Source of the DNA: an uncultured Sphingobacteriales bacterium
GTDB lineage: Bacteria; Bacteroidota; Bacteroidia; CAILMK01; CAYYUA01
Reading direction: 5' to 3'
Assembly (NCBI GenBank): GCA_964561545.1
Contig: CAZLQF010000014.1
Location: forward strand, 7,401 to 71,400
DNA length: 64,000 nucleotides
Below are positions 18,734 to 44,535 of the stretch, one piece after another. Position numbers and translations under genes: made by a program. A model generated the notes under the pieces. That model was given only the letters and a program-made list of their open reading frames with translations. It was not told the DNA's origin and ran no database searches. How positions within the stretch are numbered: position 1 is the stretch's first letter; each line of letters opens with the position of its first letter.

Positions 18734-19651
18734 ATGCCTGAAAAAAACGAATTAGAAGCCCTTGTTTATTTGTTGGATGACGCTGATGAAGAAGTGGTGA
18801 AACATGTGACAGATCAACTGCTATCCTATGGGAAATCTATTATCCCCGTATTGGAAGACCTTTCGCTAGAAAAACCTGATGATTATCCCCAATCCAAAAT
18901 CGATGATGTAATTCAGGAGATTCAATTTTCCGAAATATCTGATCAGTTTTTAAGCTGGGCTCAAAGTGGTGCTGGTGATTTGCTGCAAGGCGCATATTTA
19001 GTGGCCAAATACAGGTATCCGGGCCTTGAGCGCGAGGAAATCGAAGACAGGATCAATAAGATCAAACTGGACGTTTGGCTTGAATTAAGCAACCATTTAA
19101 CACCGCTTGAAAAAGTAAAGAAGTTTAATTACATATTTTATAATTACTACAAATTTCAGGGTGATGTAGATGACTACCATGCGCCTGAAAATTCGTTGAT
19201 CAATAAGGTTGTTGAGAAAAAGAAAGGCAATCCTATATCGCTGGCCATTGTATACTCAGTAATTGCACAGCGCTTGGGTATTCCCGTTTTTGGGGTGAAT
19301 TTACCCCAGCACTTTATACTTGCGTATAAAGATGACCGGCAATTCCCAAAAGACAATTCTTTACAAGGTTTTAACTATTTAACACCTGACCAGGCTGGTG
19401 AAACGCTATTTTACATCAATGCCTTCAACCGCGGCACCGTTTTTAATAAATGGAACATTGACCAGTTCCTGAAACAACTTAACATTGACAAGCATGTCAT
19501 GTATTATGAGCCATGCTCCAATGTGGATACCATTCTAAGGGTTCTACGCAACCTTGTTTTTTCTTTTGAATCAACAGAAGAAGATAAAAAGGTTAGTGAT
19601 CTTAACAGGCTTCACGAGCTTTTAGAACCTTATTCTGAAGGTTATAGCTAA
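18734..19651 (+). CDS. transglutaminase-like/SirB1 (UPF0162) family protein
   Basis: GNPISLAIVYSVIAQRLGIPVFGVNLPQHFIL closely resembles the SirB1/YchA transglutaminase-like core. It starts 17 nt after the topA stop. Confidence 0.5.
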   Translation: MPEKNELEALVYLLDDADEEVVKHVTDQLLSYGKSIIPVLEDLSLEKPDDYPQSKIDDVIQEIQFSEISDQFLSWAQSGAGDLLQGAYLVAKYRYPGLEREEIEDRINKIKLDVWLELSNHLTPLEKVKKFNYIFYNYYKFQGDVDDYHAPENSLINKVVEKKKGNPISLAIVYSVIAQRLGIPVFGVNLPQHFILAYKDDRQFPKDNSLQGFNYLTPDQAGETLFYINAFNRGTVFNKWNIDQFLKQLNIDKHVMYYEPCSNVDTILRVLRNLVFSFESTEEDKKVSDLNRLHELLEPYSEGYS

Positions 19652-21105
19652 AAATAAGAGGCCAGCCATTCCTCGTAATTGATGAGGTCATTAGACGTGT
19701 CGGCATTTTTCTCGGCTTCCCTGAATGCCTCTATCTCATCCACCAATTCCTGATTGTTTTTCCAATACAAGGAGCAAGACATTTGCTCCAAAAGTTTTAT
19801 TAAAGTTGCTTCTCTTTGGTAATCCTGACCGGCCAGAACGTGCGGAAAGTCTTTTTTTAGATGATGGATTCTTTTTTCCAGGATGTCAAGGTCTCTAATT
19901 TTATGGCGGATCATTAGTTCATTCAAGCGGATTTTAAACCTTAAGTATTCATCTAACTTAGGGTAACTTGCATCTTGATACAATTCATTGAGTTGTTTAA
20001 TGGCAAGCTTATTTTTCCCGGTTTCATAATACATTAAGGCCAGGTTGAGCAATACAAATACCGGGTAATGGGAGAGCTGCTTAACTTTTTCATCTCCCTT
20101 GAGGTTTTCTAATAGATCAATGGCTTTTTGAGGAGCAATCTGGGAATAATTAATAAAAAGCGCATTATAGTAAAATATCAAGTATTTGTTGTAATAAAGG
20201 CAATGATACCTTTTCATTTCTCTTTTCAATAATGCTCCATATTTTAAGGACTCGTCATGGTTGCCGATTTTAAAGTTTGCATTTACCAAATACGATATCA
20301 TTTTTAATTTGGTATCGTGGTTTTGCTTGTTAAAGAGGCCTTCTGATGAAAAAGCGTTGTAAGTGTTTTCAATGTACTCCGCCAGTGCTTGAAACTCGTT
20401 ATTTTGCAGCAGCATGTTACTAACGGCATGGTAAATCTTAAAACGAAACGAAGGCGTGTTTACCAAATCATATTGCTGGCTGAATTTATCAATGGTTTTT
20501 TGAAGCATCCCAGAAATTTCAGGGGATTTTGAGGTTCGGTTGTAAGTTCGGTGGATTCTGTTTTTAACAAGGGCCAATAATTCATCTATTTCGCGAAGTT
20601 GATCTAATTTTTTCCGGTTGTAATTTCTTTTGATGATGTAAGATTCAGGGTCTACATCCAGGGATTCTCCTCCTAACTGTATCAGTTCACCGTAAATCAA
20701 ATCTAAAATGCCATATTTTTCAAAGTTTAGCGCCTGTTTCTCGGCTTTTATTAGGTATCGATAAGCCAATTGGTAGTGATACCGCTCGGTAAATAACCTG
20801 GCGAGGCCATAGTTTTTAATAACCTTTTGCTCAGGATCCTTTTCGGTGTTTAAAAAAAGTAAGCTTTTGTTAATGTCGGCTACCACCTTATTTTTAAGCC
20901 TGTAAAAAGGGTTTTTAGAAGCATTGTTCGGGAAAAGTTTGTTAAAAATTTCTTCATCATTGGCATGGCCATCGTTTTTCCTGTAATAATTAAATAAATT
21001 AAGATCTTTGCGTTCCTTATGGTTACGCGTTCTATTGGCGATTAATTTGTAACTTTTTACCTCTTCTTTGGAAAGCTGATCTATTAAAGCCTTTAAAACG
21101 TCCAT
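19648..21105 (-). CDS. hypothetical all-alpha (TPR-like) protein
   Basis: 485 aa with strongly helical, repetitive Leu/Tyr/Lys-rich composition. No recognisable catalytic motif. The stop codons overlap convergently with the upstream gene. Confidence 0.4.
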   Translation of the reverse strand: MDVLKALIDQLSKEEVKSYKLIANRTRNHKERKDLNLFNYYRKNDGHANDEEIFNKLFPNNASKNPFYRLKNKVVADINKSLLFLNTEKDPEQKVIKNYGLARLFTERYHYQLAYRYLIKAEKQALNFEKYGILDLIYGELIQLGGESLDVDPESYIIKRNYNRKKLDQLREIDELLALVKNRIHRTYNRTSKSPEISGMLQKTIDKFSQQYDLVNTPSFRFKIYHAVSNMLLQNNEFQALAEYIENTYNAFSSEGLFNKQNHDTKLKMISYLVNANFKIGNHDESLKYGALLKREMKRYHCLYYNKYLIFYYNALFINYSQIAPQKAIDLLENLKGDEKVKQLSHYPVFVLLNLALMYYETGKNKLAIKQLNELYQDASYPKLDEYLRFKIRLNELMIRHKIRDLDILEKRIHHLKKDFPHVLAGQDYQREATLIKLLEQMSCSLYWKNNQELVDEIEAFREAEKNADTSNDLINYEEWLASYF

Positions 21106-25356: not shown

Positions 25357-25905
25357 TTAATACATGTTCCCTTCGTAGTTAAACAAACTAATGATTGACT
25401 GGCCGTATTTGTATTTTTTGATGAAATGAGGGATGTCACCAAATTCCTCTTTCTTGTAATGTTCCAAGGCAAATAAACCTTTCGGTTTCAACAACTGCTT
25501 TTCAAAAACTTTATACACCATGTTTTTACTCTCTGGGTTGTTGAATGGTGGATCAGCAAATATAATATCAAACGTCTCGTCTGTATTTTCCAGATAACTC
25601 ATGACCTCAATGCAAATGGGCTCAATTTCGTAAAATTCAAAACGTTCGCTTTCCTTGTTAATGAACTTGATGGAGCTTGAATTTTGCTCAACAGCGACTA
25701 TATGGGGTGTTCCACGGCTTGCAAATTCAAAACTAACACTACCCGTACCTGAGTAAAGGTCTAAAACCGAGACTTCATCAAAGTAGTAATAATTGTTCAA
25801 AATATTAAAAAGTCCCTCTTTGCTCCGATCTGTTGTAGGCCGAGCTGGCAAGTCATTTGGAGGGTAGATGGACATGCCTTTCTTTGATCCACTAATTATT
25901 CGCAT
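25357..25905 (-). CDS. rsmD: 16S rRNA (guanine966-N2)-methyltransferase RsmD
   Basis: LDLYSGTGSVSFEFASRG (motif I) and the ADPPF catalytic motif are present. Length 182 aa. Confidence 0.9.
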   Translation of the reverse strand: MRIISGSKKGMSIYPPNDLPARPTTDRSKEGLFNILNNYYYFDEVSVLDLYSGTGSVSFEFASRGTPHIVAVEQNSSSIKFINKESERFEFYEIEPICIEVMSYLENTDETFDIIFADPPFNNPESKNMVYKVFEKQLLKPKGLFALEHYKKEEFGDIPHFIKKYKYGQSIISLFNYEGNMY

Positions 25906-26648
25906 AAGCCGATACCAAATAAGGTATAGTAGTTGTGAGCAGAAATTTGATTGAATTGATGACTGTATTCCAACGTTTCAGGCCTTTGGCCAAAGGAAAT
26001 GTTCTTCAAATAACGTTCAAGCAGTTGATACAATTCCGAGTTACGATAGAATTCACCGGTAAAAACATAAGGATCTTTATGTGGTTTGATCTCCAGCTTT
26101 TCGCTTACGTACATTAAATAATAAAGCAAATCAACATCATTGGAGTAAGAAAAAATATTAAAGAAATGAAGGCTCCCTTGTTTCATAACGGCAATCCTTG
26201 CCAGGGACGCTTCTAAATCAGTAATGATCAAATTCTGATAATCTTTTTGGTATTGAATCAGAATGTTTTCAAGGAATAAAGTACCGGAGTGGTAAAGATG
26301 TTGGGGTGCTTTTATGTTTGCTTTAAACGAATCTAAAAGCGTGGAAGGTAAACTCCAGACAAAATATGCCCTTAATTCATTAACAAAGTTTTCCTCAATA
26401 GTTTCCTCGGAGGTTTTTTGAAAATTAAGGTTGAAATAGGAATATTTTAATTCGTGATCAAAAAAAGCTTCGGGTACCAAAGTTCCGCGCGAATTGGATA
26501 ATACCAGGTTAACGGTATTGTATTCTGGGGTTAGTAAATCAGCATTGGCCAATGCTTTCGGGGCTTCTTTCAAAGGATCATTTGATGCCTCGGGCATGGG
26601 CAATGGCTCCAAGTAAACAAACTTTCCTCGCTCACGGTCATATACCAA
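25896..26648 (-). CDS. hypothetical protein (DUF3822-like, conserved partner upstream of rsmD)
   Basis: 250 aa. Overlaps the rsmD start by 10 nt, indicating translational coupling. No catalytic motif. Confidence 0.45.
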   Translation of the reverse strand: MVYDRERGKFVYLEPLPMPEASNDPLKEAPKALANADLLTPEYNTVNLVLSNSRGTLVPEAFFDHELKYSYFNLNFQKTSEETIEENFVNELRAYFVWSLPSTLLDSFKANIKAPQHLYHSGTLFLENILIQYQKDYQNLIITDLEASLARIAVMKQGSLHFFNIFSYSNDVDLLYYLMYVSEKLEIKPHKDPYVFTGEFYRNSELYQLLERYLKNISFGQRPETLEYSHQFNQISAHNYYTLFGIGLCE

Positions 26649-26751
26649 AAAATCTATTTGATCCCGCTCATAACCAATAGTAAGGTCATATTGATCTGCT
26701 AAATCCAGATCAAAACCCTCATCTTTAATGCGTTTTGTTTTCCTTATTTGT

Positions 26752-27288
26752 TTACTGCCAGTTGCCAGAAGTAGTTGCTTTCGTTAATGAACCAACTTTG
26801 AGTGTTGTACCTTTTATCGGGCGTACGTCCTTGGCTTCAAATACGTTGACGTTAACCCCCCTTTCCGTGATCATGTCTGCTTCCAAGTTAAATTTTTTGC
26901 CACCAGTGTTTGGCGAATATTGTATCGAATCAATGGGATAGTCTTCAGCAAATAGATCATCCTTAATGGGCACATAAGAAGTATCCCTGCTTACTTGAAT
27001 TGTTGTATCGTTGGGATCACCTACTGTCTTAATCCTGGTGAAGCTATCATGTTTAACAGTGTAGAGGAGGCTGTCCCAGTTTCCTGTATATTTACCATGG
27101 AGTTCTTTGTAAGCATTTTCCGCATCACGTACATGCTTGAGCCGCTTAATAACCTTATTCTTAGTTTCTTTAATCCTTTGTTCCTTAACAATAGGTTCCC
27201 TGATTACTGCGTAAAGCCAGTAACCAAGCAAAAGGACAACGAGTACAAGTACTAATCTTGTGACGATCTCTACAGTTCTCTGATTCAT
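26752..27288 (-). CDS. hypothetical membrane-anchored protein
   Basis: Single N-terminal TM (LVLVLVVLLLGYWLY). The remainder is presumably periplasmic. Confidence 0.4.
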   Translation of the reverse strand: MNQRTVEIVTRLVLVLVVLLLGYWLYAVIREPIVKEQRIKETKNKVIKRLKHVRDAENAYKELHGKYTGNWDSLLYTVKHDSFTRIKTVGDPNDTTIQVSRDTSYVPIKDDLFAEDYPIDSIQYSPNTGGKKFNLEADMITERGVNVNVFEAKDVRPIKGTTLKVGSLTKATTSGNWQ

Positions 27289-27338
27289 GATTGTTGGTTT
27301 CGAATTTCTTGAGGCATCGCAAAGCTATAAATTATCTG

Positions 27339-29438
27339 CTAAAAATTTAACCTTATTTGCGCTTTAACCTCTGTTCGTTTATTGCCAGGAATGGTATTCA
27401 AAGCACTTCCAACTTCTTCTCGGTTCCTATAATTGGTTTGCCCGATCTTCAACCAAAAATCTAAATACCTTGCCGGTTCCCATTTGGCTAAAAGGTAATA
27501 CCGCATTCCTTTATCAGAGAAAAAGGGTATGCTAAAAGCATAAAGTAAATCGTTTTCGTAGGTATAAATTCGACTCTGGAAACCATCAATATCAAAAACT
27601 CCGTATCTCGCTGTTAAGCTAAATTGATCATTGCGGCTCTCATATTCTACATCCTGAAAGAGTAAAACGCCATTTTGGTTCGCTTCTAATTCTGAATTGT
27701 AGTGGGAATAGGCAATCCGGCTTTGGAAAGAAAATAAACCTGAAGTTCGGTAACTTGCGTTCCATCTCAAATTATGGCGTTGATACCGGGTAAGCGAACT
27801 CATTGAGGATTCGCCCCCTGCTAAATTTCGATCCTTGATCTGTGCCTTGTAACGCCAATAAGTTTCAAACCATCGTGAGGGAGTATAAGTAACATCAGCC
27901 AAATATTCATAACCATCAGATGGGACATCCGCACGAAAACGCAACCAAGGGAAATCAAATTGATCCATGTAAAGGTTGATGTTCCAATCCTGGAAAGGTG
28001 ATAAGGTCATCCCTAAAAACAAACCCCTTTCATTGTCAACACCACCGGCTTCACTGAATGCATTGGCATACACCGCTTGGTAATCTTTTGGGTAATTCCG
28101 GTAAATGGCTCCCAGGTTAACTCCGGAGCCTAAATTGGCCATAACTCCTTGCATATAGGCAATTGCTCCATTATGCGAATAGCCAGCTTCTCCAAAAGTA
28201 AAAATGTTTTCGTAGGACCAGGCGTAATTGACGCCCACATCCCAAAAGGACCGACCTGAAAAGTCAAATTTTTTATACAAGCGATTTTCATTAATCTTTG
28301 GCACATCATATTCAGCATGAACACCTGTTGCTCCTAATTCCAACTTACCAAATGTATATTTTACATTACCGCCTATGATCGTTTCTCTAATGGCATTTTT
28401 GTCCTTAAGATCCGTTTTGGTGCGGTGGTAACCGGTATTGTCAAAAGAAGTAAAAAATTGATCGAACGATGAGGTGCTATCGGCCTGATTGATATTGGCA
28501 TTTTTGGGTTTATCAGAATAAAAACCGGTCACTTCGGCATCGCCAAATTGAAAGGTGACACCTGCTCCCCTTAAAAACTGGTTTTCATTTGAGGATCGGT
28601 AGGGCCTTAAACCTCGGCCATTTTTGTAGATGTTCATGACATCCGGCGTTTTGCCAAAACTTAAACCAGACCACATCACCAATCCTTCTCCAAACTGCGC
28701 ATGGTAATCACCTATGGCCAAGGATTTGATAAAGCCAATGTCTGATAAGTAAAAATGAGCAGAATAAAAATCATAGCCGTCTTGATGGGCCCCTCTAAAA
28801 AATTCTTCGCCTGGATCCTTATCTGCTGTAAAACCCAGGCTTAAGTTATCGGAATATTCATAAGTATAGCGGGTGTAAAGCCGGTAAGGACTTCCTAAAT
28901 AACCAGTATTGGTAGCTCGATTTGATGTATCCCTTCTTTGCTGGCCTTCAGTCTTTTCGAGATTTCGGCTGCTTCTAATAAATAGGTCATGATCCCCATA
29001 TTTCCAAATGTTCTCCAATGATAAGCTTACTTCCTCTTCATCACGCCTGATGGTGACGAATTGCAATAGCCATCTTAAGGTTTGTTGGTCCAAAGATTCA
29101 ATGGCTTGCAACTCATATAAGGTTACAAAGTCACCATAACGGTCTCGATAAGCCAGGATTTCATTAACCTCTGAAATGTTTAAGAAATGCATTGACAAGA
29201 GCTTCTCTCGTGTAGCCTTGTTAAGTGATAAAGGGCGTTTGTAATATTGGTTGAGGGTATTAACCAATTCGGTGTAATCAACATTTTTATCAGCTTCTTC
29301 AAGTATGGATTCAACGATTCGTTCTAACTCAGGATCATTCACATCCTGGGCCTTTAAAGGCCCATAGAAGGTCATCAAAATACTGAGAAGAAGGACGCCA
29401 ACAGTCCAATTGAGGTTATGTTGTATGCTTGCTTTCAA
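27339..29438 (-). CDS. outer membrane beta-barrel protein with N-terminal ComEA-type helix-hairpin-helix domain
   Basis: Signal peptide. LSLNKATREKLLSMHFLNISEVNEILAYRDRYGDFVTLYELQAIESLDQQTL aligns with the ComEA HhH DNA-binding motif. The C-terminal ~550 aa are rich in alternating aromatic/Gly beta-strands and end in RLNF (terminal Phe OMP signature). Confidence 0.6.
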   Translation of the reverse strand: MKASIQHNLNWTVGVLLLSILMTFYGPLKAQDVNDPELERIVESILEEADKNVDYTELVNTLNQYYKRPLSLNKATREKLLSMHFLNISEVNEILAYRDRYGDFVTLYELQAIESLDQQTLRWLLQFVTIRRDEEEVSLSLENIWKYGDHDLFIRSSRNLEKTEGQQRRDTSNRATNTGYLGSPYRLYTRYTYEYSDNLSLGFTADKDPGEEFFRGAHQDGYDFYSAHFYLSDIGFIKSLAIGDYHAQFGEGLVMWSGLSFGKTPDVMNIYKNGRGLRPYRSSNENQFLRGAGVTFQFGDAEVTGFYSDKPKNANINQADSTSSFDQFFTSFDNTGYHRTKTDLKDKNAIRETIIGGNVKYTFGKLELGATGVHAEYDVPKINENRLYKKFDFSGRSFWDVGVNYAWSYENIFTFGEAGYSHNGAIAYMQGVMANLGSGVNLGAIYRNYPKDYQAVYANAFSEAGGVDNERGLFLGMTLSPFQDWNINLYMDQFDFPWLRFRADVPSDGYEYLADVTYTPSRWFETYWRYKAQIKDRNLAGGESSMSSLTRYQRHNLRWNASYRTSGLFSFQSRIAYSHYNSELEANQNGVLLFQDVEYESRNDQFSLTARYGVFDIDGFQSRIYTYENDLLYAFSIPFFSDKGMRYYLLAKWEPARYLDFWLKIGQTNYRNREEVGSALNTIPGNKRTEVKAQIRLNF

Positions 29439-29441
29439 AAG

Positions 29442-30278
29442 CTATTGTTCAGTCAATCCTGTTATGTAATTGGTGCCTAAATTGGGTGTAAATCCAAGCT
29501 TTTGATGGATAGAAAAAGCTATATCAATTCTGAAATTGTTAAAATCGAATCCCAGCCCAAAGTGGTATTTTAAAGGCTTGGTAGCAAAACCACCTCTTAA
29601 ATGAAAATTGTTGCCAGGGTGGTATTCCAGTCCATTTTTAATGGACAAATCCTGTTCGATGGGTTTTTCACCTTCAACCAGCCATGTAAGCTTTTCTGAA
29701 AAGTCAAAACCTGTACCCAACCTGAACACCGTAGGATATGGCTCATCTTGATAAGAGGCGAATTGCTGGTTGGTGGGATTGAAAACGTGGGCTGCCAGGT
29801 CCACCTTCTCACTGATGTGAAAGAGCAGGCCAGCCTCTGCGAGTACATCCCACTGATTGCCGGTTTCGCGTACAAAGGTATTAAAGGCATCAAATTGTAT
29901 CCCTGCTGATACACGATCTCCAAAGGAGCGGGCATAAGTAAGTCCATATCGTTGCTGGTAAAAAAAGTTACTGTTGTTAAACTGGTAGAAACTTAGGCCA
30001 AATGTTCCCACATTCTTAAAGGGTTTAACAACCGAAATAGCCCCTGCATTGAGTTCTTTAATGCTGAATTTCCGCTGGGCATAAAAGCCAACCGAAAAAC
30101 TTTGCAATTCTGCCAATGCTGCCTGATTGTGAAATGTAGCCCAATGATCAGGAAGGGTTAAGGCCGCATGGGCAAGTCCTGCAAAGCGGCTACCGGCAGG
30201 AAAATTTTCTCCACCGGCTTTAACCAAACAGGGCAATAGCAAAAGACCCAGCAAACAAATGCGTAGAAAATGCTTCAT
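29442..30278 (-). CDS. PorV/PorQ-like (FadL-fold) outer membrane protein
   Basis: Signal peptide then GGENFPAGSRFAGLAHAALTLPDHWATFHNQAALAEL. This matches the N-terminal pattern of T9SS PorV/PorQ family barrels (F..AR.AALGGA..ADDASA..NPAGLA). The gene lies 3 nt upstream of the HhH OMP gene. Confidence 0.45.
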   Translation of the reverse strand: MKHFLRICLLGLLLLPCLVKAGGENFPAGSRFAGLAHAALTLPDHWATFHNQAALAELQSFSVGFYAQRKFSIKELNAGAISVVKPFKNVGTFGLSFYQFNNSNFFYQQRYGLTYARSFGDRVSAGIQFDAFNTFVRETGNQWDVLAEAGLLFHISEKVDLAAHVFNPTNQQFASYQDEPYPTVFRLGTGFDFSEKLTWLVEGEKPIEQDLSIKNGLEYHPGNNFHLRGGFATKPLKYHFGLGFDFNNFRIDIAFSIHQKLGFTPNLGTNYITGLTEQ

Positions 30279-30545
30279 AAATTAGCAAGCAACCATAGAT
30301 TTCTTAGGCTAATATAGGGAATCAGCAAGTTTTATCGGTGTTAAAATTGAAATTTGGTTTACATCAAAGGTTTAAGGTTCAACTTCAAACCTCCAACATT
30401 GAACCACTTATGATGTCTCAGCGGAGGCTTTTCTTGTAACTTCAGAATTTGGATTAACCAAAATATCTGTAAAAAGCTCGAGATACCAGGTATTTCAGGC
30501 CAGCGAAAAACTCCGCGTTGTGTGAAGAAATGGCCTAATCTTGTT

Positions 30546-32036
30546 TTAGGTTGAGCGGTTTGAATTCCTGGAGCGGGGGATGGTATGTTTGGCCAAAATC
30601 CGTTGCTTTTCGGCTTTTACGATTTCCTGTTTGCGAAAGCTCCACAATTTTTTGCGGGCTGCCTTGCCAGCTTCCTTAATATCAACGATGGGTAAGGGAT
30701 AGGTTTGACCGGGCTTGAAACCTGAAAAGTCTTGTTCTAATACTGGCACAGTCCACGGTTGGTGTATGTAATGATCAGGACAAGATTGAAGTTCAGGAAC
30801 CCAGGTTTTGATAAAAATGCCCTCCGAGTCGTGGTCCTGGGATTGTTTGATGGGATTGTAAACCCTAACCGTATTGGTTCCGGTAACGCCTGCTTGCATT
30901 TGCAATTGCGGAAAATGAATGCCAGGCTCAAAATCCAGGAAATCTTTCGCTAAATGAGCACTGATCATGGACCATGGAAGCCAAAAGTGATGGGTGGCCA
31001 CTGAAGTTAGCATAGCACGCATACGAAAATTGATGTAGCCTGTTTGGTTCAGGCAGCGCATACAAGCATCAACAAGCGGTAGCCCTGTTTTGCCTTTACT
31101 CCAGGCTTGGTAGAGCTCTTTGTCATAACATTGGATCATTGCCTCATAACCTTGGTTGAGGGACCTAAACTCCAATTCAGGTTCCATTTCAAGCTTTTGT
31201 ATAAAATGGCTCCGCCAAAAAAGCCTGGACTGAAAAGCTGAAAGCGGGCCTTTCCATTGTCCTTGTGCACGAACCTGCTGAGTGGCTTTGTAAACCTGGC
31301 GCAAGGATAAATTACCCCAAGCCAGGTAAGGGGAGAGCCGGCTGCAGCTTTGACGGCTTTCGAGCGGTTTTGAAATGTGCTTGTTGTAAGTAGCCGCTCT
31401 ACCTTTTGAAAATGAATTTAAAACACCCTTTCCCTGTAATTCACCTCCGGTTTGGAATTTTTTGGCAGTTTGATTGTCGAGGTCTTTCATGAGGGGAAAG
31501 TAGCTCATCAGATTTTCGACAAAACTTGCTTCAATAAATCTGATCTTGTTTAAATCCGGATCGGCCGTTTTTTGCTTCATGTAGTTGTACCATTGTTGAA
31601 CCCATCTATCCCGGCTAATAAGACCTCTAAAAACGCCATTATGGGTATATTCATACCAAGGGAATGCTTGGGATCGGCACCATTGTTTAATTTGCTCATC
31701 CCTTTGGTAAGTGATGTAAAGCCCTGTCTCTTTATGGGAATACAGACCTTGAATGGTTACAAGCGTTTGCAAGATTTGCAATAATCTCAACACAGGTACT
31801 TTAACGCGTAAGATCCTGGTTCCTAATGGGGCTAATTGTGAATCCAGCTCATCGAGCGATTGCTGTTGGAAGAGGAGGTGACGATCATCGGTATGATCAT
31901 GGTGTAGTAAAGCGGGTTCAAAAGTATGAAAGAGCAAAACCGGCCTACCAGCTTCAGCAGCTTTTAGCAAAGCTTGGTGGTCGGTGATACGTAAGTCCCT
32001 TTTGAGCCAAACCAGATTTAAACCATCGGTTACCAT
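30546..32036 (-). CDS. cryptochrome/photolyase family protein (FAD-binding; DASH/CryPro-type)
   Basis: N-terminal photolyase alpha/beta domain ([20 protein letters not shown]) and a C-terminal FAD-binding helical domain with Trp-rich motifs. Confidence 0.75.
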
Positions 32037-43779: not shown

Positions 43780-44535
43780 ATGCTCAAAGGACTTTTTGTT
43801 GCTAGTGTGTACCTTATTTGTTGTTCTAATGTTGTTGCCAATCCCAATGACCCTGATAGCCTTGAACAAAACCTGCCTTTGATAACGGGTGAATTGACCA
43901 TGGGCACTTCTGTTCCGGTCGCTGACTTCTATCCATCCAATAAAAGCTCGGGTTATGCGCAACCAGGTTTTACATTGAGCTTTAAAGGCAATTATTTCCT
44001 CCAACCCAAACTTGGTATTCATTTTAAAGGCGGCTTTTTGATCAACAATTTTAATAAGCATGATTATCGGGAAGATCAATTAGAAAAAGGTTCATTCCAG
44101 GATTTAGAACTAAATACCGGGACTTATAAAACTTTGTACTTGACAGTCGGCCCAACTTACCAAATACCCTTGCAATGGCTGAGATTACAAGTACATGCCG
44201 GTATAGGTTATTTGTACGAACATGATTCTAAAATTGATGAAACCCGGATTTTTGGTTCGGGATACCGATCGCGGAGCGAAAAAGCCAGTGGCGATGGAAA
44301 TGCCATGGCTTTTAACGTAGGAGGCCAAATGCGCTTTGAGCTTAATTCAAGGATGGATTTATCATTGGGCGTTGATTACCTGGTTGCTAAGCCAGGTATT
44401 AAAGCTGAAAAAACCAGCGGCAGTTTTGATCCCGAAACGGATCAAACAATCGAGAACTCAAAGACTGAGGAATACCGCCTGCTGATATCATCCTTGAACA
44501 TTAGTGCAGGTTTGGCTTATCGGTTTAATTGGTAA
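43780..44535 (+). CDS. outer membrane beta-barrel protein (OmpW/OmpA-like small porin, hypothetical)
   Basis: Signal peptide, alternating hydrophobic beta-strand pattern, and a C-terminal aromatic residue (AYRFNW). Confidence 0.5.
   Translation: MLKGLFVASVYLICCSNVVANPNDPDSLEQNLPLITGELTMGTSVPVADFYPSNKSSGYAQPGFTLSFKGNYFLQPKLGIHFKGGFLINNFNKHDYREDQLEKGSFQDLELNTGTYKTLYLTVGPTYQIPLQWLRLQVHAGIGYLYEHDSKIDETRIFGSGYRSRSEKASGDGNAMAFNVGGQMRFELNSRMDLSLGVDYLVAKPGIKAEKTSGSFDPETDQTIENSKTEEYRLLISSLNISAGLAYRFNW

Follow-up and report, generated by a model that had tools for sequence, protein, structure and literature searches.

What does an outer-membrane barrel that carries a ComEA-like domain do in a member of the Bacteroidota, and with which genes does it act? 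The question was raised by a locus within the analyzed window, a 64,000-nucleotide stretch from an uncultured Sphingobacteriales bacterium (contig CAZLQF010000014.1), for which the original prediction had proposed a three-gene envelope operon engaged in DNA capture.

Gene order and the conserved unit

All genes of the locus lie on the minus strand. According to the ORF map they run from a photolyase/cryptochrome gene (30546-32036) through a 278-aa ORF (gene 1, here called "mini-PorV", 29442..30278), a 699-aa ORF (gene 2, an outer-membrane protein, 27339..29438, stop codon included) and a 178-aa ORF for a bitopic protein (26752..27288) to a DUF3822 gene (25896-26648) and rsmD (25357-25905). This order bears out the claim that the block sits directly upstream of DUF3822 and rsmD. 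The intergenic stretch 5' of the barrel pair (30279..30545, 267 nt) is the presumed promoter region; a sigma-70 promoter scan of this upstream DNA gave sites that were not above those in shuffled sequences, and the sigma-70 consensus does not fit Bacteroidota promoters.

Genes 1 and 2 are separated by only 3 nt (ctt, 29439..29441). The junction reads TAG-ctt-TTG, with TAG as the stop of the 278-aa ORF and TTG as the start of the 699-aa ORF, which confirms the 3-nt gap reported between the PorV/PorQ-like gene and its neighbor. We accepted the TTG start because it yields a signal peptide ending in PLKA before a Gln, because this peptide aligns with those of 29 homologues, whose Gln at this place is nearly invariant, and because one public gene call (P0234) has the same product length of 699 aa; another call (P0001) gives 678 aa from an internal ATG and thereby loses the signal peptide. 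Both ORFs represent real genes, since homologues were found with E-values down to 1e-220.

With one genome scanned for each species, at least 595 species were found to encode a relative. The 80 best loci from these species are all labelled Bacteroidota and belong to Bacteroidales, Marinilabiliales, Lentimicrobiaceae, families of Flavobacteriales, Chitinophaga and Saprospirales. When 1.84 billion cluster representatives were searched with a profile, the family came to 5,243 clusters (50% identity, E≤1e-30), the best 150 of which are all 652-744 aa long. By tblastn, a PorV-like gene lies directly upstream and on the same strand in 75 of the 80 best loci, and an HMM search added one more (L011). 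Three loci end at a contig edge and were left out, which gives an upstream PorV-like gene in 76 of the 77 evaluable loci. The sole true exception is L071, where the upstream gene was rejected as a divergent PorV-like partner (no Pfam match, hhalign probability 2.5%). Adjacency holds while sequence identity across orders is about 35-40%, and the tight linkage foreseen for the two barrel genes is supported. The spacing between gene 1 and gene 2 was −47 to +20 nt in 63 of 72 other loci, with modes at −11, −4, −1 and 0, a pattern of overlaps and short gaps that is typical of translationally coupled subunits made in a fixed ratio. Complete genomes of two cultured species also contain the pair, namely Draconibacterium halophilum, where the genes overlap by 4 nt, and Saprospira grandis. 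We found no natural fusion of the two barrels; the apparent case in L076, a 1051-aa ORF in a high-GC genome, was discarded as an ORF artefact caused by out-of-frame extension.

Besides the PorV-like gene no neighbor is conserved among the 80 best loci. Recurrent neighbors of the pair are purE, hpt, adk, obg and a PAP2 phosphatase gene, and competence genes do not recur in these loci. The housekeeping context and the spread over the phylum suggest a constitutive role in the envelope.

The 178-aa gene, co-directional with the barrel pair and 50 nt away from it, behaves differently. Few homologues of its product are detectable. A homologue occurs in two of the 80 barrel loci (L069 and L071), both times beside DUF3822 and rsmD, and it adjoins the barrel gene in only one of the 80 other loci (L069); in L071 the trio of small gene, DUF3822 and rsmD lies on the opposite strand, 3 kb from the barrel gene. 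The gene also sits with DUF3822 and rsmD in L081/L082. Homologue P0125 comes first in a row with DUF3822 and rsmD that adjoins a divergent PIF1-type helicase gene and has no barrel pair nearby. Because the homologues keep this company, we assigned the 178-aa gene to the DUF3822-rsmD unit. The proposed three-gene envelope operon was therefore rejected as a conserved unit, which consists of genes 1 and 2 only. DUF3822 itself shows the fold of actin-like ATPases (PDB 3hrg, E 1e-8).

The two outer-membrane barrels

The product of gene 2 starts with a signal peptide (residues 1-30, 29349..29438), which in at least 90% of the family members consists of a hydrophobic core followed by Ala and Gln, and cleavage is predicted to occur before the nearly invariant Gln31. 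It is followed by the N-domain (residues 31-135, 29034..29348), supported by its HHH_3 match, ComEA alignment and column statistics, and by a beta-barrel (residues 149-699, 27342..28994). In the AF2 model (moderate pLDDT, 77.8) the DSSP string contains ~24 long strands, and the C-terminal aromatic F699 is kept in at least 90% of the members. A signal peptide, an even strand count and a C-terminal aromatic residue are what characterizes an outer-membrane barrel, and both the secretion signal and the barrel-like C-terminal region ending in Phe that had been proposed for this protein are upheld. The turns on the side of the termini comprise 2-5 residues and the loops on the opposite side are long and conserved; conservation is higher in these long loops than in strands and turns, and many invariant positions are charged. 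From the even strand count and the short turns at the end of the barrel where both termini lie, the HhH domain is predicted to be periplasmic. The suggestion of extracellular or eDNA capture is thereby made unlikely.

Apart from HHH_3 the 699-aa protein has no Pfam match (Plug, TonB_dep_Rec and Usher are absent), and the barrel wall is the only part of it with fold matches. The ~24 strands of the model would make the barrel about as large as those of pilus ushers and MtrB, a size at which a folded domain or a polymer could pass. Comparison with FimD/PapC ushers and MtrB gave TM-scores of only 0.3-0.4 and an identity of 7-11%, and the protein lacks the plug of ushers as well as their N- and C-terminal domains. 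The likeness is generic large-barrel similarity, not homology. Neither the plug and TonB box of TonB-dependent transporters nor the domains of ushers were found in it, and identity with PorF of P. gingivalis was dismissed, as PorF is a TonB-dependent-receptor plug protein.

In the 278-aa protein a signal peptide (about residues 1-21) is followed by an N-terminal segment that forms a hatch inside the barrel and by a 14-strand FadL-fold barrel, in agreement with the earlier description of the protein as PorV/PorQ-like with a FadL fold. In the hatch, N51 and A53 are invariant across the family (NQA motif in the query, N-(Q/P)-A in general), and we take this motif to resemble the NPA motif of FadL. 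The protein ends without an aromatic residue, and the family keeps an LGFTP motif followed by a variable tail. Scores against the NCBIfam models PorV_fam (58.8 vs. 90 bits) and T9SS_OM_PorV (15.8 vs. 250) were below cut-off, the query had no Pfam match at E≤0.1, PF03349 included, and a precomputed PF03349 match exists for only three of 106 homologues.

The ComEA-like domain and its lost DNA-contact residues

The N-domain is made up of two acidic helices and a degenerate ComEA-type double-HhH (residues 69-130, 29049-29234). The earlier alignment of the HhH region with the ComEA domain proved sound: Pfam HHH_3 matches residues 70-128 with 30.1 bits against a gathering score of 27, and it also hits 29 of 30 members of the family at E<0.01. 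The sole PDB sequence match of the N-domain is ComEA (E 0.014). The NCBIfam ComEA models, in contrast, remained far under their cut-offs (TIGR01259, 17.9 vs. 152.35 bits; TIGR00426, 17.8 vs. 53.1).

HhH domains touch DNA phosphates via backbone amides, and the best-conserved residue of ComEA, K164 in B. subtilis and K63 in V. cholerae, is required for transformation; in B. subtilis, K164A and K199A each reduce transformation >100-fold (Ahmed et al., PMC9747964). In our HMMER alignment the four hairpin glycines of ComEA correspond to F85, N87, S115 and D117 of the query. Among 121 family members, Gly occurs at these positions in 0%, 0%, 79% and 0%, and position 117 is Asp or Glu in 85%. Three of the four glycines are thus gone family-wide and all four in the query, and the Gly-hydrophobic-Gly hairpin is missing from both HhH motifs. 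At the position of K164/K63 the query has Glu90, where 97% of the family have Gln; at that of K199 it has Leu125, and the family Leu, Gln or Met. The net charge of the N-domain is −9 in the query, with a family median of −15. The charge of the HhH segment alone was abandoned as an argument against DNA binding, since two ComEA HhH domains are likewise at −2, and our argument rests on the specific residues together with the charge of the whole N-domain.

The homology to the ComEA-type fold is real and the DNA-contact signature is lost. What stands of the proposed DNA capture is therefore the fold; the glycines and lysines that should make the contacts are replaced, and the domain is acidic. Judged from these residues, the N-domain most likely does not bind DNA and serves to dock a partner or substrate in the periplasm, and the automatic labels that databases give to the family ("ComEA family DNA-binding protein" or "DNA uptake protein") are, on the same grounds, probably wrong.

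A candidate two-barrel machine and its rivals

In recent structures, FadL-fold barrels are seen as bound subunits of larger Bacteroidota barrels (PMC12611786, PMC12578637; PDB 6h3i), namely PorV on SprA in the T9SS translocon (6h3i) and BamG on BamA. Because of these precedents and the near-obligate overlapping gene pair, we propose that the two proteins form a complex. In this complex the ~24-strand barrel would be a gated conduit whose long conserved loops most likely close or line its lumen. The trimmed PorV/FadL barrel may dock on the large barrel within the membrane, in the manner of PorV on SprA and of BamG on BamA, and could supply a membrane-facing or cargo-handling side path, while the ComEA-like domain would hang in the periplasm and dock a partner or substrate. 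That genes 1 and 2 encode a constitutive two-barrel transport machine of this kind across the Bacteroidota is a reading that we hold with about even confidence.

The pair differs from each of the closest known systems. Unlike SprA, the large partner has ~24 strands and 699 aa and shows neither sequence likeness nor specific fold likeness to that protein, and the 278-aa protein is ~100 residues shorter than PorV and stays under the PorV/PorQ family cut-off. Unlike BamA in the Bacteroidota BAM complex (PDB 9n2d, 9hj3, 9hjm), the large barrel is not an Omp85 protein and lacks POTRA domains; BamG, at 390-406 residues, is far longer than the 278-aa protein. To ComEA (PDB 8dss, 8dfk) the likeness lies in the double-HhH fold and the predicted periplasmic location of the N-domain, whereas the 699-aa protein fuses this domain to an outer-membrane barrel and has both the hairpins and the transformation lysines replaced. 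Possibly, the Bacteroidota have in this pair a third, hitherto unrecognized outer-membrane machine with a FadL-type partner, alongside the T9SS translocon and BAM. It would be a dedicated translocon for a macromolecular or lipid-linked substrate for which no way in or out is known in the phylum, a bolder suggestion that we put forward tentatively and with some doubt. Such a machine might take up transforming DNA with no secretin involved, or handle a lipid or lipoprotein that is exposed on the surface.

If the Bacteroidota outer membrane, which uses FadL-fold barrels as subunits of T9SS and BAM, contains this pair as a complex, another module would be added to this set. A full-text literature search found no publication on the 699-aa barrel family, HhH/ComEA terms are absent from the text supplements of the BAM papers on F. 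johnsoniae and B. thetaiotaomicron, and no homologue with an established unrelated function came up that would have contradicted the earlier proposal. A large-barrel family of >5,000 clusters amid housekeeping genes has no published function that we could find. The pair offers a defined two-gene target, for which the model predicts complex formation, no binding of DNA and a periplasmic docking domain.

Three other explanations were weighed against the proposed two-barrel complex. The two genes could encode outer-membrane proteins that share an operon and act independently, such as a small channel for hydrophobic compounds and a large structural or tethering barrel with an N-domain that binds peptidoglycan or another envelope component. 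FadL-fold proteins do transport alone, and the hatch motif with its invariant N51 and A53 is kept, in line with a channel function of its own; however, adjacency in 76 of 77 loci across orders at such low identity, with overlapping stop and start codons, is far tighter than for any other neighbor, and we regard independent action as unlikely. Highly unlikely, to our judgment, is a DNA-uptake pore in which dsDNA passes the 24-strand barrel and the tethered ComEA-like domain acts as a periplasmic ratchet. Such a pore would agree with the HHH_3 match above the Pfam threshold and its presence in nearly all members, with ComEA as the only PDB sequence match and with a barrel that, judged from the usher/MtrB size class, should be wide enough for 2-nm dsDNA, and the outer-membrane step of Bacteroidota transformation is unresolved, the Riemerella model being speculative (PMC8459023). 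Against it stand the absence of Gly at hairpin positions 85, 87 and 117 with an acidic residue at the last, the Gln/Glu and Leu/Gln in place of the two lysines, the acidic N-domain, the low scores of the NCBIfam ComEA models and the lack of recurrent competence genes beside the 80 best loci. The transformation-essential HhH protein of Riemerella (RA0C_RS02645) is also built differently, with its HhH at residues 236-301, and identity with the 699-aa protein was rejected.

The pair could also be an accessory module of the T9SS, in which a PorV/PorQ-family shuttle hands a subset of cargo to a dedicated anchor or exit barrel. None of the genes linked to the pair belongs to the T9SS, the genomic partner of gene 1 being the HhH barrel instead, and we consider this reading quite unlikely. 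As a separate observation, the window encodes a T9SS cargo protein, an M43 peptidase with a Por_Secre_tail domain, and the organism therefore has a T9SS.

The unit of the 178-aa gene, DUF3822 and rsmD

The gene for the 178-aa bitopic protein, downstream of the pair of barrel genes, forms a conserved three-gene unit of its own together with DUF3822 and rsmD (window 25357-27288, minus strand), and the same unit is found in three other loci that we compared with the window (L069, 7997-9898; L071, 573-2839; L081, 2822-4847). The fold of DUF3822 is that of an actin-like ATPase (PDB 3hrg, BT_3980; E-value 1e-8). An actin-fold DUF3822 beside a small single-pass membrane protein brings to mind PilM-PilN or FtsA-type pairs, a putative resemblance.

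Alignment with homologues showed that the conserved N-terminus of DUF3822 (...KDEGFDLDLADQYDLTIGYERDQIDF...) extends in frame about 27 codons 5' of the first TTG start, and in this upstream in-frame stretch (window 26649-26735, minus strand) ATG, GTG and TTG are all absent. Translation may thus really begin at a codon outside the canonical set, e.g. the in-frame ATT near 26729.

Surroundings and relatives of the barrel pair

The immediate upstream neighbour of the pair is a photolyase/cryptochrome-family gene (30546-32036, minus strand; FAD_binding_7, E 1e-64), which scored below all NCBIfam subfamily cut-offs (DASH, 146.8 bits vs. 317). The 90% cluster of the 699-aa barrel protein includes PSR06026.1, named 'Bacteroidetes bacterium SW_10_40_5', and this metagenome-assembled genome or a close relative of it is therefore the probable source of the window. 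At least 90% of the members of the 699-aa family share Gln31 (window 29346-29348, minus strand), which directly follows the site where the signal peptide is predicted to be cleaved. Exported proteins of Bacteroidota tend to carry an N-terminal Gln (pyroglutamate), a habit with which the conservation of Gln31 presumably agrees.

Unassigned ORFs and type IX secretion cargo

Two ORFs in the window, of 485 aa (19648-21105, minus strand) and 251 aa (43780-44535, plus strand), had no Pfam family at E≤1e-5. [quoted passage not shown]
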